A stretch of DNA of 64,000 bases, taken from positions 93,744,001 through 93,808,000 of the forward strand of contig NC_042998.1 in the NCBI RefSeq assembly GCF_006345805.1, in the 5' to 3' direction. Origin of the DNA: Octopus sinensis (taxonomy: Eukaryota). Within the stretch, counting starts at the first letter, position 1, and the number at the start of each line of letters is the position of its first letter. The notes beneath the pieces were generated by a model. It made no database searches and had not been told where the DNA came from. It worked only from the letters and a program-made list of their open reading frames with translations. Of this stretch, positions 572 to 45,185 are shown one piece after another. The position numbers and the translations under genes were made by a program.

Positions 572-1700
<1,129 letters not shown>

Positions 1701-1915: not shown

Positions 1916-2130
1916 GTGCGAGTGACCACGTGTGTATCGTTGGCGATTTTATTTCCTCCGTCTTCCCTTCCGTGGATCTTTCCTTTTTCTATGTTTCTGA
2001 CGAAGAGCTCCGCTCGAAACGTTAAATCCTCCTTCTTTCTTTCCTTTCCTGAGCGTCCAATAACACTATACTTGTTCCACATCCTCGCGTTGTTGTGTTT
2101 TCTGTTTGTGTTTTCATGTTTGGATTAACT
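1905..2130 (+). mobile_element. Non-coding HHR-bearing element, family A
   Basis: Inverse copy at 8625-8822 and a truncated copy near 36960-37072; bounded by microsatellites. Confidence 0.65.
1993..2027 (+). ncRNA. Minimal type I hammerhead motif
   Basis: GUUU CUGACGA A GAGC UCC GCUC GAAAC GUU AAAU; loopless palindromic stem III, as in Penelope-associated dimeric hammerheads. Confidence 0.7.
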
Positions 2131-4174: not shown

Positions 4175-4433
4175 TATATAAATATATGCATATATACATA
4201 CATATATGTACATACCTACATATATATGTATATATACATGCATATATGGGTACAGGGCATCAAAAAAAGAACGTGGACAGAATGAGAAACGAGAACATAA
4301 AAAAACAAAAACATAGAAAACGAACTATTTTTCGAAAAACGAAAAAAAACAGACACGAGACGTACAACAAAAAGAACATTCCCTTCATCAGTTGTCCCCT
4401 GTTTTATCTACTTCGCGTTACGAAGGTAAGGAG
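4175..4433 (-). mobile_element. Truncated family B element with a partial permuted hammerhead (4381-4432)
   Basis: Shares catatatgggtacagg and cccttcatcagttgtcccc with the copies at 665 and 44565; GAAAC mutated to GUAAC; ends in (TA)n. Confidence 0.65.
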
Positions 4434-4476
<43 letters not shown>

Positions 4477-8199: not shown

Positions 8200-8490
8200 T
8201 ATATAAATACAAAGTGGGACAAGAACGCAAAACATTCAAATAGATGATACAAAAAACACGGATGGGTCATTCGAAGCCTCTAATCTTCAGTCAAGAACCG
8301 GATCATCCTCGCAATTTCGGATAATTAATCTTGAGATTGCTCCGATCTGGCCAGCTCCCAGAAAAAACTAAGCTACGAGCATTAGATTTCTTGGAAACAG
8401 GATCGAATGTATATGAAACAAGAACAGAAAAACGGACGATGTTACACGAATATAAATACAAAAAACAAAAAATAATACGAAAATATGTAC
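8200..8490 (-). mobile_element. Family C element with a permuted hammerhead (8275-8351)
   Basis: Homologous to 42996-43433; minus strand GCAAU C UCAAGA...CC GAA AUUGC...UCUUGA CUGAAGA. Confidence 0.7.
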
Positions 8491-8723
8491 ATATAGAGAG
8501 AGAGACACACACACATGCATGTATATACGTATATATATATACATATACATATGTATATGTATGTACACATATCTATACATATACACACACACACATGCAC
8601 ACACATATGTATATATATACACACACAATCCAAACAAGAACAAGCAGGAAAAAACAACAATGCGAGGACGTGGAAGAAGTGTAGTGTTATTGGACGCTCG
8701 GGAAAGGAAAGAAAAGAAAGAGG

Positions 8724-8758
8724 ATTTTACGTTTCGAGCGGAGCTCTTCATCAGAAGT
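8724..8758 (-). ncRNA. Minimal type I hammerhead motif (family A copy)
   Basis: CUGAUGA A GAGC UCC GCUC GAAAC GUA AAAU. Confidence 0.7.
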
Positions 8759-8827
8759 ATGGGAAAAGTCCAAAGAAGGGAAGACGGAGAAAGAAAATCG
8801 ACGACGATACACACGCGGTCACATATA

Positions 8828-9120
8828 AATTTGCAGTTACTCTATCCAGATTACAAGTTGAGATTTATACCTGTAATTACTGGAGCATTGGGATATGTAG
8901 CACATTGTCTGAATACCAGTCTTGAGAAATTATGTTTCTCAAAACCAGAAAGGAGAAAGCTGATTCGAAGACTACAGATCCAAGCTATTACTGGAACTGT
9001 TAAAATCTCTAAAACTTTCCAGAAGTTTATCAGTTAAATATATATGAGAATGTCTAGATATGCAAGTATATGCAAGAGAAGACATACATAAAATAAGACA
9101 TACAAATCTACACATATTTA
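8828..9120 (+). mobile_element. 3' end of an RLE-type non-LTR retrotransposon (R4/Dong- or NeSL-like)
   Basis: NLQLLYPDYKLRFIPVITGALGYV...LIRRLQIQAITGTVKISKTF resembles the restriction-like endonuclease C-terminus (P-V-I-x-GALG); a 3'UTR then runs into (CATA)n. Confidence 0.75.
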
Positions 9121-14604: not shown

Positions 14605-15560
14605 ATATACCAGGCCCTGTAGTATTTGTTCATTGACGGCAAGCCACAGTATAGATAGATCAGAATTGGGTCCTTAAGCCTGAGAGGTCAGAGAGGCCCG
14701 CGGGCAAAATCATCGCATTGAACCCTGTAATATTTATTCATTGACGGCAAGGCACAGTATAGATAGATCAGAATTGGGTCCTTAAGCCTGAGAGGTCAGA
14801 GAGGCCCGCGGGCAAAATCATCGCATTGAACCCTGTAATATTTATTCATTGACGGCAAGGCACAGTATAGATAGATCAGAATTGGGTCCCTAAGCCTGAG
14901 AGGTCAGAGAGGCCCGCGGGCAAAATCATCGCATTGAACCCTGTAATATTTATTCATTGACGGCAAGGCACAGTATAGATAGATCAGAATTGGGTCCTTA
15001 AGCCTGAGAGGTCAGAGAGGCCCGCGGGCAAAATCATCGCATTGAACCCTGTAATATTTATTCATTGACGGCAAGGCACAGTATAGATAGATCAGAATTG
15101 GGTCCTTAAGCCTGAGAGGTCAGAGAGGCCCGCGGGCAAAATCATCGCATTGAACCCTGTAATATTTATTCATTGACGGCAAGGCACAGTATAGATAGAT
15201 CAGAATTGGGTCCCTAAGCCTGAGAGGTCAGAGAGGCCCGCGGGCAAAATCATCGCATTGAACCCTGTAATATTTATTCATTGACGGCAAGGCACAGTAT
15301 AGATAGATCAGAATTGGGTCCTTAAGCCTGAGAGGTCAGAGAGGCCCGCGGGCAAATCATCGCATTGAACCCTGTAATATTTATTCATTGACGGCAAGCC
15401 ACAGCACGAATAGATCAGGAATTAAGTGCCTAAGCCTGAGAGAACTGCAGACAAATCAATACACTGAGCTCTATAGTATTTATTTACTGACAGCAAGCCA
15501 CAGTAGATATAGATCAGAATTGGGTCTCTGGGCTTGTGAGGCCCCTGAGAAACTATCCAA
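14605..15560. repeat. 108-bp tandem repeat: 7 near-identical units (14648-15402) plus diverged flanking units
   Basis: agtatagatagatcag recurs at 14648, 14756, 14864, 14972, 15080, 15188 and 15296. Confidence 0.97.
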
Positions 15561-17966: not shown

Positions 17967-19238
17967 TTGGGTCATTCCATAAATAATGCGGTATTTTATA
18001 CTTCTTTTATTTTTCAAAATTAAGATAAACAAAATTCTTTTTTAATCTACAATAAGCTCTCCTTCATTTTCTGCTATGTTCTTCCATCTATCTGGTAAAG
18101 TTGCAAAGACCCTCTTCCAAAATTCACTTGTCCGTGACGAAAAATACTCCGCCAATACTGTTCTGACCTTGTCTACAGAATTCAACTGATTTTGAAGACT
18201 GCAGAATAAATGATAATCAGATGGAGCAATGTCAGACGAATGTGATTGGTGGGGCATCGTTTCCCATTCAAACTGCTCCAGCCTTTGGAATGTCTTCTGC
18301 GCTGTATGTGTCCGAGCATTATCCTGATGGAAGAACACCTTTCGTCTTGAAACCAAAGAGGATCGTTTTTCTTCTAGCGCCGACTTAAGCCGCTGAAGCT
18401 GCTCGCAGTAAATCTCCTTTGTTATCGTTTGGTTTGGGTTTAAAAGTTCAGAGTGGACTAAACTTTTCATATCCAACCAAACAGATAACAACACCTTACG
18501 TGGTGAAGACCTTCTTTAGCCTGGGGTGTCGGTGTTTCTCCTTTCCCTACCCACTGTCTTCAGCGCTGACATTTTTATAGAGAGCCTATTTCTCGTCATC
18601 AGTCACTATTCGGTTCGAAAAAAAGGTTCATTCGCGAGACGTGACAGTAAAGAAGAGTACACATTCACTCTCTGCGCGCGATTAGACTCGAAAAGTCTGT
18701 GAGGAACCCATTGACCCAATTTGCTAACTTTTTCGATAGCACACAGGCGTCGACGAATAGTTGAATAACCAAATCCAAGTTTCTCAGCTAGTTCCTCGAC
18801 AGTTACGATGAGATTTTATTCCACCAGGGTTTGCAGGACGTCCTTGTCGTGCTCTACAGATCTTCCAGGATGAGGTTCGTCTTCTAGGCTGTAGTTTCCG
18901 GTTCGGAATATCTGGAACCACCGTTGACACTGGTTTACACTTATTGTCCAATCCCCATATACTGCATTAATATTCCTTGCACTTTCCATTGCGTTGTTGT
19001 CTTTACTGAACTGGTAAAGCAAAATATGCTGAATATGCTACTTTTTCATTTCCATTATAGCTTTGAAAAAATAATAGTTAAAATCGAACTGCACTCTTCA
19101 AAACTTGCACTAAGAATAAGTACAAGGTAAAATTACTACCTGCTTTTATAGCAAGTTGATGCAGGTAGCTTATCCCGTCCCCCTCCGACTTTTAGTTCAT
19201 GCAATTAAAAGAACTGCATTATTTATGGGATGACCCAA
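17967..19238 (-). mobile_element. Full-length defective mariner transposon
   Basis: 26-bp TIRs TTGGGTCATYCCATAAATAATGCRGT, TA duplication at both ends, 1272 bp; transposase pieces (HQDNARTH...SDIAPSDYHLF) broken by stops and frameshifts. Confidence 0.95.
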
Positions 19239-31172: not shown

Positions 31173-31472
31173 CTGGCATAGATCCTGCCTTTATTTTAAC
31201 CAATTAGCTTACGGTTTACATGTAATGGTTTTATGAGTGAGCAAGCCTAGTTGGTTTCAATCGTTTTTTATTTCAGTTGGCGGGAGTCTTCTGTAATTTG
31301 TTTATATTAATATGTTAACGACATATTTTTTAATCCACATCATTAACTGGTTGTTATATCATTGTTGTTATTTCCGTTCAGAACAGGTTTTAACATTTTA
31401 ATATGTTGCAACCATATAACCTAAAGGTAACCACATAGCCTAAAAAAACTATTAGCAAAAGCAAAATTCGAC

Positions 31473-31886
31473 ATGAACAGGATAAAGCATTCACAGTATC
31501 CAAGTGTAATGATAACAGATGTGAAACGTGTCAATACATGCATACTGGTAGATCCATCAGAACAAAAAAATGGACAGATTTTCGCAAATGTAGATATGAA
31601 CTGGAAAAGCAGAAATTTGATCTATTGTACTAAATACCTGAATTGCGAGGAACTATATATTGGCGAAACAGGGAATGCGTTATCGGAACGCTCACAAGTC
31701 CACAGACAACAAATCCGGAACACTAATGTTCACCAAATACTATTGAGCGAACATATAGAAACACGTGGTTAGAAAATGTTCCTAATTTTTCATTTCCACA
31801 AACTACATAACACAAGTAAGGTTGGAAGAAATATGAAAGAAAAACGGTTTATTAAAATGTTCACACCTGTTCTAACAACCAGTTAA
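31473..31886 (+). mobile_element. Penelope-like element GIY-YIG endonuclease fragment (pseudogenised)
   Basis: SRNLIYCTKYLNCEELYIGETGNALSERSQVHRQQIR...LSEHIE*...KEKRFIKMFTP; one in-frame stop. Confidence 0.85.
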
Positions 31887-42125: not shown

Positions 42126-42262
42126 GGTATGTAGAAAAATACAACATGGACAAGAACGTATAACTCTTAGAAGACGACATAATAAACACGGACAGGACAC
42201 TCGAAACCCTCAGTCTTCAGTCAAGAACCGGATCATCGTAGTAATTTCGGCTGATTAATCTT

Positions 42263-42386
42263 GTTGCTAATAGACATGTATGCTTTCATCGTCTTATCCA
42301 CTACGCCTCCAACAATACAAGAGAGCTGAAAGAAAATGAGGAAAGGTAGTAGTGACATAATGTCTGTCACTACATGCGTATAAGGC

Positions 42387-42910: not shown

Positions 42911-42997
<87 letters not shown>

Positions 42998-43081
42998 TAA
43001 ACAGTAAAAATAATTACAGACATGGACAAGAACATGAAACACCACAGAGACGACACAAGAACCACAGGACGGGACATTCGA

Positions 43082-43156
43082 AGCCCTCAGTCATCAGTCA
43101 AGAACCAGATCATCTTAGCAATTTCGGCTGATTAATCTTGAGATTGCTCCGATTGG
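43082..43156 (-). ncRNA. Candidate non-circularly permuted hammerhead (family C)
   Basis: GCAAU C UCAAGA UUAAUC AGCC GAA AUUGC UAAGAUGAUCUGGU UCUUGA CUGAUGA CUGAG GGCU. Confidence 0.65.
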
Positions 43157-43846
43157 GCAGCCCGCCAAGGAAATCTAAGCCAAGCGCATTAGATCCCCTG
43201 GAAGAAAGCTTCGAATGTATACAACACGAGGACGGAAAACGAACGAAGTACACGAACAAAAATACAGAATACGTGACACCAATAAGAATACAAAAACGTA
43301 AAAACAATAACGGTAAAAATAAAAAACAAAACAAAACCAGGACGTAGGACAAGGGTCTTTCGACAGGACGAGTTGAGTTTAGGGCTGGCTTATGAAGTTG
43401 TGCCTAATGGCCGCAGGAGACGAACAAATACGTGTTGCTTCGGCGACTGCTGGAACGAAAAGAGCGCTCAACAGTGGCTAGCGGTCACGTGAGAACAAAA
43501 GACAGGAGAAAGGGACAGATGAAAAGAGAGAGAAGGTGGACGAGGGAGGAGAAGAAAGAGACAGATCGAGGGGACTGGAGGTGAGAGAGATAGAGAAACG
43601 TAGAGGGGGGGGGAAAGACGGATGGAGAGGGAAAGAAAGGAAGGGGAATAAGGGAGGAGAGAGAGAGAGAAAGAGACAGATCAAGAGTCGTATCAATGCT
43701 AGAGAAAAAATATACTTATCGTATAAGGACAATTGTGGATACGTAGCCGCCGATTATATAGGTAAACAGTAAAAATAATTACAGACATGGACAAGAACAT
43801 GAAACACCACAGAGACGACACAAGAACCACAGGACGGGACATTCGA

Positions 43847-43922
43847 AGCCCTCAGTCATCAGTCAAGAACCAGATCATCTTAGCAATTTCGGCTGATTAA
43901 TCTTGAGATTGCTCCGATTTGG
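43847..43922 (-). ncRNA. Candidate non-circularly permuted hammerhead (family C, second repeat)
   Basis: Same motif as 43082-43156. Confidence 0.65.
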
Positions 43923-44240
43923 GCAGCCCGCCAAGGGAAATCTAAGCCAAGCGCATTAGATCCCCTGGAAGAAAGCTTCGAATGTATACAACACGAGGAC
44001 GGAAAACGAACGAAGTACACGAACAAAAATACAGAATACGTGACACCAATAAGAATACAAAAGCGTAAAAACAATAACGGTAAAAATAAAAAACAAAACA
44101 AAACCAAGACGTAGGACAAGGGTCTTTCGACAGGACGAGTTGAGTTTAGGGCTGGCTTATGAAGTTGTGCCTAATGGCCGCAGGGAGACGAACAAATACG
44201 TATATATAAAATAATATGTTACAATTACTCAATAGTCAAA

Positions 44241-44564: not shown

Positions 44565-45185
44565 AATAAATAAAACTATGCATATATACATACATATATG
44601 TACGTACCTACCTCTACATGTATATATACATGCATATATGGGTACAGGACACAAAAAAAAACGTCGAACACAATGAGAAACGAAAACATAAACACAAAAC
44701 CAAGGAACTGGACATTTTTCTTAAACAACGAAAAAATAGAGTACAGGACAAATAACACAAGGAAAATTCCCCTTCTTCAGTTTCATCTACTCTGCGTTTC
44801 GAAGGTGAAGGCGATACGCATCTTCGATAGAAACTTTCCTTCCCGCGAAAAGCAAATTAAATAAAATTTGAGATCTTTTTGCGGAGGGGTAAAAATGGTA
44901 ACAAAAACAGGACAGTAACGACAGTACAAAATATAAACAGCAAAAGACAGGACAAGGAGAATAACAAGACAAGAAGGGCTGTTAAGCCGAACGAGATAAA
45001 GTATTACGAACGCTATTTTTGAGAACGGCGAAGGATTAACAGAAAATGCCGTCAACACTTCAAGGAAGCCAGGTCAGAAAGACAGTAGCAGAGCTCTCGT
45101 CGCGGGTCAACGACGGGAGGGAGGAGGAGCAAGAGAAAGGGAGAGAAAAAAAGGGAATAGTTGTGAGGAAACCAGAAAGAATGAA

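Follow-up and report, generated by a model that had tools for sequence, protein, structure and literature searches.

Within the 64,000-nucleotide (nt) stretch of Octopus sinensis DNA analyzed here (contig NC_042998.1, positions 93,744,001 to 93,808,000; referred to below as the window), two nearly identical repeats beside a TA microsatellite each carry the conserved segments of a hammerhead ribozyme in an unfamiliar order. This raises the question of what kind of element was inserted at this locus, which strands form its ribozyme, and whether its RNA is cut. We regard it as reasonably probable that the insertion belongs to a tandem family inserted into (TA)n, likely of the retrozyme type, whose units carry a predicted split type-SGC hammerhead that is likely closed by a four-way junction. 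The insertion and the other copies of this family, designated family C with subfamilies C1 to C4, are located in the window as follows.

42996..44201, minus strand: whole insertion, subfamily C1; 1.57 head-to-tail units, 5′-truncated at 44201, with the family-fixed 3′ end at 42996
42996..43761, minus strand: complete 766-nt noncoding unit, with the predicted cut 146 nt before its 3′ end
43761..44201, minus strand: truncated second unit, taken for the second direct repeat in the preliminary description
43142..43906, minus strand: predicted 765-nt unit RNA between the two predicted cuts, deduced from the structure
43755..43760, minus strand: UAUAUA directly past the unit 3′ end, likely the annealing site for a nicked (TA)n target
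42914..42995, no strand assigned: (TA)41 microsatellite target at the 3′ junction
42137..42263, minus strand: separate C3 copy, starting 1 to 2 nt past the predicted cut (junction read by eye)
8203..8466, minus strand: older C2 copy

The preliminary description had interpreted the locus as 440-bp direct repeats flanking a spacer of about 325 bp. The near-identity of the repeats is real: the alignment of 42990-43433 with 43755-44201 contains 442 matches, 2 mismatches and 3 one-base indels, the units are 99% identical, and about 326 nt separate the repeat copies. They are not terminal repeats, however, the supposed second repeat being the truncated second unit. Among the family insertions measured, the 3′ end is fixed, but the 5′ ends are scattered and the lengths vary between 0.19 and more than 3.2 units, which rules out a fixed 440-bp pair of long terminal repeats (LTRs) around a spacer (the length table comprises 34 rows and 33 distinct insertions, one being listed twice and one being the window locus again, walked incorrectly; five of the 34 rows run off their loci or into N). 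A plant LTR retrozyme was rejected as well, as the repeat length is not fixed and the block order is not SCG. The element had also been placed inside (TA)n, which holds for the 3′ end with its (TA)41 tract, whereas the 5′ side has just (TA)4 at 44201-44208. Its description as noncoding stands, since no reading frame of at least 120 amino acids (aa) overlaps 42996-44201.

A 20-mer from the motif has 5,139 exact matches in the 2.72-Gb assembly, and a C1-specific 37-mer has 749. Subfamily C2 is older, C3 is young with a unit of about 850 nt, and C4 is old and about 70% identical to C1. The family combines partial head-to-tail insertions, a fixed 3′ end, 5′ truncation and a microsatellite target, all of which are marks of Penelope-like insertions (PMC8557442). 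The element is almost certainly a mobile nonautonomous retroelement, and the proposal that it is a young one is supported. That the tandem arose by local duplication at the DNA level or by an assembly error, and not by retrotransposition of a multimeric or circular RNA, is very improbable: the 99% identity of the units would fit it, and no read or contig among the contigs of four runs spans the whole stretch, but tandem layouts with 2 to 4 motifs recur at other loci at a spacing of 764-785 nt, and many dispersed loci share the unit and its 3′ end, have unrelated 5′ ends and are usually flanked by (TA)n on both sides.

The predicted ribozyme elements of the two units, all on the minus strand, are listed below.

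43074..43218, minus strand: predicted split-core hammerhead, copy 1
43218-43204, 43201-43165 and 43088-43074, minus strand: copy 1, P0′, hairpin P5 and P0, respectively
43162-43158 and 43130-43126, minus strand: copy 1, stem II 5′ strand and stem II 3′ strand
about 43156-43151 and 43111-43105, minus strand: copy 1, 5′ strand and 3′ strand of the I-II helix
43148-43143 and 43122-43117, minus strand: copy 1, stem III 3′ strand and 5′ strand
43141-43136 and 43103-43098, minus strand: copy 1, stem I 3′ strand and 5′ strand
43142, 43125-43123 and 43097-43091, minus strand: copy 1 core, C17, GAA and CUGAUGA
43839..43985, minus strand: predicted split-core hammerhead, copy 2, with the stem II 5′ strand at 43928-43924, C17 at 43907 and CUGAUGA at 43862-43856

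In both copies, the AUC cleavage block is followed by GAA-A and then by CUGAUGA, with a stem I and a stem III of 6 bp each, so that the permuted hammerhead was found on the minus strand of both repeats with stems I and III and the core as first described. Copy 1 is one base shorter than copy 2 in a strand of the I-II helix and one base shorter in P5. The predicted cuts (C17 at 43142 and 43907) lie 765 nt apart, and the modeled structure matches the cut positions and the spacing proposed earlier. The hammerhead core consensus is present (C3-U4-G5-A6-N7-G8-A9, G12-A13-A14, A15.1-U16.1 and H17), and all core bases are retained in the young subfamilies. The block order, S-G-C, is not a circular permutation, the orders CGS, GSC and SCG corresponding to types I, II and III. 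A descriptor of this layout gave 4 matches in 464 kb, comprising the window and 40 stretches picked without regard to the motif; two of these were the window element's own copies, and there were no matches in 8 dinucleotide shuffles or in the reversed sequence. A search against Rfam yielded no hammerhead among the 150 matches listed of 162 over the window, and none over 43000-44200 at E values up to 10. Unconstrained RNA folding revealed no extra stability relative to shuffles (z of 0.37 and 0.69), as expected for a pseudoknot, and thus lends the predicted structure no support. The linker past stem I (43136-43129, minus strand) forms an 8-nt palindrome in C1 to C3, not in C4, and could allow dimer contacts.

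Given the S-G-C order and the missing Rfam match, identity with a type I hammerhead was rejected. A more specific version of this idea is that CUGAUGA and a GAA 11 nt downstream constitute a minimal type I hammerhead of the ordinary Penelope kind that acts as a dimer, the upstream matches being accidental. Indeed, C1 and C2 do have a GAA past the core, and motifs of this kind occur in the window (family A, at 1997 on the plus strand and 8754 on the minus strand). Nevertheless, this GAA reads GAG in the young C3, the next base is U and not A15.1, and C4 is without a stem II in that form. Such a ribozyme would also leave unexplained the covariation of four upstream helices and the pile-up of insertion junctions described below, and we give it hardly any credence.

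The decisive point of the layout is the partner of the stem II strand that precedes GAA. The preliminary description had paired it downstream (AGCC/GGCU), at the cost of a 5-nt insertion after the core. An upstream strand at 43162-43158, located 20-21 nt before C17, pairs perfectly with the five bases preceding GAA; its first base is G10.1, and the upstream stem II always opens with the G10.1-C11.1 pair. We compared both partners in 25 aligned copies from the four subfamilies (28 were extracted, and a duplicate C1 row, a near-identical C3 row and the decayed C2 copy of the window were excluded). The four helices of the upstream layout were 95.0% paired, versus 20-48% in slid controls; pairing amounted to 98.7% for stem I, 93.6% for upstream stem II, 98.4% for stem III and 88.8% for the I-II helix that joins the free strands of stems I and II. 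By comparison, the downstream stem II was 77% paired, and its G10.1-C11.1 pair failed in 10 of the 25 copies. Furthermore, if CUGAUGA is led directly into a stem II strand, no pairs are possible at 0-1 nt in any of the family C rows compared.

Changes on both sides affected 8 of the 21 pairs of the four helices, namely one in stem I, three in stem II, three in stem III and one of five in the I-II helix. The stem II changes are those of C4, where three of five pairs differ on both sides (GGCUG/CAGCC became GGGCA/UGCCC); they represent a single branch, C1 to C3 versus C4, and are not three independent draws. Stems I and III are likewise changed on both sides in C4. A tally as high as that over the four helices was reached by 77 of 500 shuffles, and therefore the case rests on the cross-family pattern as well. 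A helix of at least 4 bp could be formed upstream and downstream, respectively, in 17 and 17 of 18 C1 copies, in 30 and 31 of 37 C2 copies, and in 13 and 12 of 13 C3 copies. As both helices are possible there, C1 to C3 alone leave the choice undecided; it is C4 that decides, with 15 upstream and 0 downstream helices in 24 copies, even though C4 is decayed and the upstream stem II reaches 4 bp in just those 15.

A stem II 5′ strand that precedes the cut implies that the core is opened between A9 and G10.1. We therefore considered how this opening might be closed. Constrained folding with the ribozyme body masked predicted that the strand past CUGAUGA pairs about 70 nt upstream, forming a helix, P0, around the hairpin P5. 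In C1, P0 comprises 15 bp (43218-43204 with 43088-43074), and P5 is a long hairpin that ends beside G10.1. P0/P5 was the minimum-energy fold for the majority sequences of C1, C3 and C4, among which the sequence has changed; for the C2 majority sequence, P0 was not the minimum-energy fold. According to these models, the core is likely interrupted at the A9-G10.1 link, with a four-way junction closing it. The hammerheads of Penelope-like elements (PLEs) usually have an extra base at the 9/10.1 link (PMC4209133), which makes it a plausible site of opening. The core insertions covered by PMC3088659 lie at other places, and none of those it presents is of the split A9-G10.1 kind.

The split layout is not restricted to family C. 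Family B, whose strand order had been described as the same, in agreement with our results, has three copies in the window.

945-1060, minus strand: family B copy, split layout with stems unrelated to those of family C
about 4360-4470, minus strand: family B copy, split layout, unrelated stems
44750-44870, minus strand: family B copy, split layout, unrelated stems

In the assembly, family B has 3,920 pattern matches, and some loci (L139 and L243) contain its units in tandem, at 833-861 nt each. An invariant upstream strand, 25-28 nt before H17, complements the strand preceding GAA, and stems I and III covary, as does the I-II helix; the search pattern itself fixed the stem II 3′ strand, so that covariation of stem II within this family is not obtainable. 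At the position of P0/P5, a conserved 5-nt complement and a hairpin were recognized by eye, while folding preferred a local hairpin. The copy at 44780 is missing the 5′ strand of stem I. In another family B copy (L010:180-300), the upstream part repeats the 3′ part in reverse-complement orientation, and this inversion begins a few bases past the predicted cut; the arrangement is typical of inverted Penelope insertions.

A further family, of Naiad type, has a third, unrelated upstream stem II of 6 bp, again offset by 21 nt. In 17 of 30 loci, the C-terminal fragment of the protein lies upstream of the motif, and the family is decayed, with 35-77% identity to the query fragment and many stops. 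A pattern derived from the published end of Naiad_Ovul had 294 exact matches in the assembly; in PMC8557442, this element is marked just as 'HHR_half_core'. We then inspected by eye about 300 nt at the 3′ ends of the 47 Naiad consensus sequences in the supplement of that paper. Five of them carry the split layout, two from Octopus (Naiad_Obim and Ovul) and three from Acropora (Amil, Aacu and Anas), with mismatches in Aacu. Six nematode ends (Naiad-1, -2 and -3_Nbra, Hcon, Hpol and Asuum) contain instead well-paired, uninterrupted type-CSG hammerheads, a type for which PMC10085705 reports just two metagenome sequences. Within the approximately 300 nt viewed, the remaining 36 ends have neither the split nor the type-CSG layout. 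According to PMC8557442, Naiads are without canonical hammerheads, and eight 'half cores' are listed there.

These comparisons bear on an alternative reading of the motif as a type-SGC hammerhead without a split core: the strand past CUGAUGA would form stem II, with a bulge of 5 nt, and might alternate with the upstream strand in this role. Most C1 to C3 copies do allow a downstream helix of 4 bp, and family B allows a G-U-rich downstream helix of 4 bp after one extra A. Such a helix is, however, absent from all 24 C4 copies and, by eye, from the three Acropora Naiad ends; its pairing falls short of that of the upstream stem (77% versus 93.6%), and P0 already takes up the strand that it would need. 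We consider this alternative decidedly unlikely. Judged from the aligned sequences, the upstream strand is very probably the true partner of stem II, provided that the fold is a hammerhead, and the downstream stem II of the preliminary description is probably wrong.

We next asked whether the genome itself records cleavage of the RNA. On a cleaved RNA, a reverse transcriptase starting at the fixed 3′ end can proceed no further than the first nucleotide past the cut (+1). A TATATA lay within 10 nt of the predicted cut in 192 of 2,505 minus-strand copies (7.7%), compared with 58 of 3,581 (1.6%) in a control window at +17 to +28 and 6 of 725 (0.8%) in one at −26 to −15 (Fisher P values of 1.5 × 10−31 and 2.6 × 10−15, respectively), with the proviso that the three junction patterns cover different subfamily mixes. 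The junction count relied on a 20-mer starting at +3, and minus-strand counts, one per place, were used because plus-strand counts repeat places. A hand count of 45 distinct listed places assigned 20 starts to +1, 2 to +2, 17 to +3 and 6 to positions upstream of the cut, although TA microhomology blurs +1 and +2, and the A residues of the TA flank inflate the +3 class. One copy of 147 nt starting at the predicted cut lies 46 kb from the element (locus L165). In a subset of family B junctions, 15 of 23 places were at +1 or +2 and 8 upstream, a less clean distribution that has no denominator. At two cut-site 5′ junctions (G000:C2:3193494 and G000:C9:51449547), the first bases past the cut are duplicated over a short length, as if the reverse transcriptase (RT) had reprimed at the end of the cut RNA.

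A further alternative holds that the fold derives from a hammerhead but no longer cuts, or cuts too slowly, the junctions arising from RT stalling or from microhomology of AT-rich bases with (TA)n. The downstream control window also contains a microhomology hotspot, and eight of nine predicted Xenopus retrozymes are reported to remain uncleaved in vitro (bioRxiv 10.64898/2026.07.22.740005). Moreover, read-through across the cut is common and was exact in 99 of the first 100 listed of the 749 matches (one substitution, no excess of indels); such exactness speaks against imprecise template jumping, but it fits circles and uncut multimers alike. On the other hand, AT-rich bases continue upstream of the cut and are rarely used as junctions, the number falling from 20 at +1 to 2 at −1, and several +1 junctions carry untemplated bases and not microhomology. 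The retention of the core in the young subfamilies and the covariation of the stems also speak against a dead ribozyme, and we consider this alternative unlikely. The pile-up of 5′ ends at the predicted cut thus makes cleavage at AUC in vivo quite likely, as far as genomic junctions can tell. As for RNA, no records holding the element were listed. In run X2, whose assignment as RNA is a guess, one contig ends at 43141 and another starts at 43905; we gave these no weight, as contigs cannot show RNA ends.

The layout that we propose, stem II 5′ strand, cut site, GAAA and CUGAUGA, corresponds to type SGC opened between A9 and G10.1, and it suggests the following cycle. A tandem copy would be transcribed from the minus strand, and each unit would cut itself after AUC, at a site predicted from the structure and indirectly reflected in the genomic footprint, thereby releasing a 765-nt RNA. 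The cut is spanned by some 30 bp in stems II and III, the I-II helix and P0, which may hold the ends together so that they can be ligated into a circle. The enzyme would probably be RtcB, the more efficient ligation route for other animal retrozymes (PMC7229834). A Penelope-like RT/GIY-YIG protein acting in trans might then nick (TA)n and prime at the UAUAUA behind the fixed 3′ end. If the template is a cut RNA, the RT would reach its end after 146 nt, producing short insertions whose first base is at the cut; if the template is circular or an uncut multimer, synthesis would go on and yield lengths between 0.3 and more than 3 units, with ragged 5′ ends. Copies of both kinds are seen, and the 1.57-unit copy in the window could exemplify a product templated by a circle or a multimer. 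To a circular RNA intermediate as such we give about an even chance.

A partial search for an autonomous element with RT and GIY-YIG domains that shares the 3′ end or the Penelope LTR (pLTR) of the unit found none. The PLE hits near family C copies are few and represent insertions into TA runs. This is the case for the remnant at L140, which was rejected as a partner after its full locus had been read; those at L017, L026, L203, L210, L225 and L286 seem to be neighboring or host elements, judged from strand and TA flanks. A GIY-YIG search of the genome gave 147 matches among 150 scored, mostly from a young Neptune-like family with proteins of 775-781 aa that contain RT and GIY-YIG domains (the RT scoring just under the Pfam cutoff) and with TA runs at the ends. 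One apparently full young Neptune-like element (L121, G000:C1:207473000-207482500) has an upstream frame of 479 aa, an RT and GIY-YIG frame of 781 aa, and pLTRs of 1.15 kb that are 99% identical and carry an ordinary type I hammerhead. The eight Neptune-type loci compared had no detectable sequence in common with the 766-nt unit. The Naiad-type family is unlikely to move the young C1 copies because of its decay.

Several other features were observed in the window and near it. Family A comprises minimal type I Penelope-style hammerheads with one extra A before stem II, at 1990-2035 (plus strand) and 8715-8760 (minus strand). The copy at 8754 is antisense beside a reading frame at 8456-9037, whose end recalls what we take to be a restriction-like endonuclease retroelement. 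Another type I family, with an 8-bp stem II and a long stem III, occurs 20-30 kb before the window (L167:8180-8330, plus strand, with an inverted copy at the same locus). A tandem array at 14615-15442 holds 7.7 copies of a 108-bp unit with 97% matches, and 31409-31880 (plus strand) encodes the decayed C-terminal part of a Neptune-like GIY-YIG element. The frame at 18042-18515 (minus strand) resembles what is presumably a fragment of a mariner-type transposase.

Collectively, the balance tilts somewhat toward an active animal hammerhead that lies outside the six permutations of 2023, with a catalytic strand interrupted between A9 and G10.1 and restored through a four-way junction, that drives retrotransposition of thousands of repeats through circular RNA and that, together with the type-CSG motif of nematodes, would be the ribozyme that Naiads seemed to be without. 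If this is correct, the hammerhead fold is broader than current descriptors and Rfam models detect, and, as the motif has no Rfam match, ribozyme counts in animal genomes would be underestimates. Noncircular permutations would then move from metatranscriptome contigs to an animal genome, with high copy numbers and a genomic footprint of cutting. The absence of hammerheads from Naiads has been used to suggest that hammerheads may merely parasitize Penelope-like elements (PMC8557442); the argument that Naiads spread without a hammerhead would be undone. What the window locus newly contributes is a young, intact tandem member with two predicted ribozymes, a compensatory test within the family that argues against a downstream stem II, and a junction count with control windows. 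The literature accessible in full text, thin on subscription papers, yielded no split-core or permuted hammerhead in retroelements, and the supplementary alignments of PMC10085705 could hold variants.

The closest ribozyme is type SGC, represented by HRIMA-1 and its variants and validated in vitro, with occurrences reported from metatranscriptomes only (Eckert et al. 2023, PMC10085705). Like the type-SGC RNAs of that study, the window motif has the S-G-C order, the full core consensus, a short linker between the 3′ strands of stems I and II, and an extra helix that joins the free strands of these two stems. It differs from them in that their CUGAnGA leads directly into stem II (with 0-2 inserted nt), whereas here A9 leads into a separate closing helix, and the stem II 5′ strand and the helix extension lie upstream of the cut; Eckert et al. 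assume that CUGAnGA and the neighboring stem strands are uninterruptible (PMC10085705). None of the type-SGC RNAs that PMC10085705 describes comes from the genome of a known organism, in contrast to the thousands of copies in an animal genome found here.

As an element, the insertion resembles the animal non-LTR retrozymes in consisting of noncoding tandem units with one hammerhead each (Cervera and de la Pena 2020, PMC7229834) and in being dispersed as monomers to multimers (PMC7229834; Li et al. 2026, bioRxiv 10.64898/2026.07.22.740005). For those retrozymes, PLE-driven mobility and circular RNA have been proposed (PMC7229834; bioRxiv 10.64898/2026.07.22.740005), and both would apply here by analogy. 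In PMC7229834, however, they have type I ribozymes and RNAs of 170-400 nt, unlike the noncircularly permuted hammerhead, the 766-nt unit and the (TA)n target of the window element; an animal retrozyme consensus can reach 972 bp (bioRxiv 10.64898/2026.07.22.740005). The insertion shares (TA)n targeting and partial tandem insertions with the Naiad PLEs (Craig et al. 2021, PMC8557442); unlike the Naiads described there, it lacks a reading frame, and we could not link it to any Naiad by sequence. Like the minimal type I motifs of PLE pLTRs (Cervera and de la Pena 2014, PMC4209133), its hammerhead lies near the end of a Penelope-type repeat, and for those motifs cleavage followed by circularization has been proposed to explain head-to-tail copies (PMC4209133). 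The pLTR hammerheads have a vestigial stem III and need dimers (PMC4209133), whereas the window motif, with its stems of 5-7 bp, could fold as a monomer according to the model. By its sequence, then, the window element is like both an animal non-LTR retrozyme and a type-SGC ribozyme, yet it fails one defining feature of each, the type I ribozyme of the former and the uninterrupted passage from CUGAnGA into stem II of the latter.
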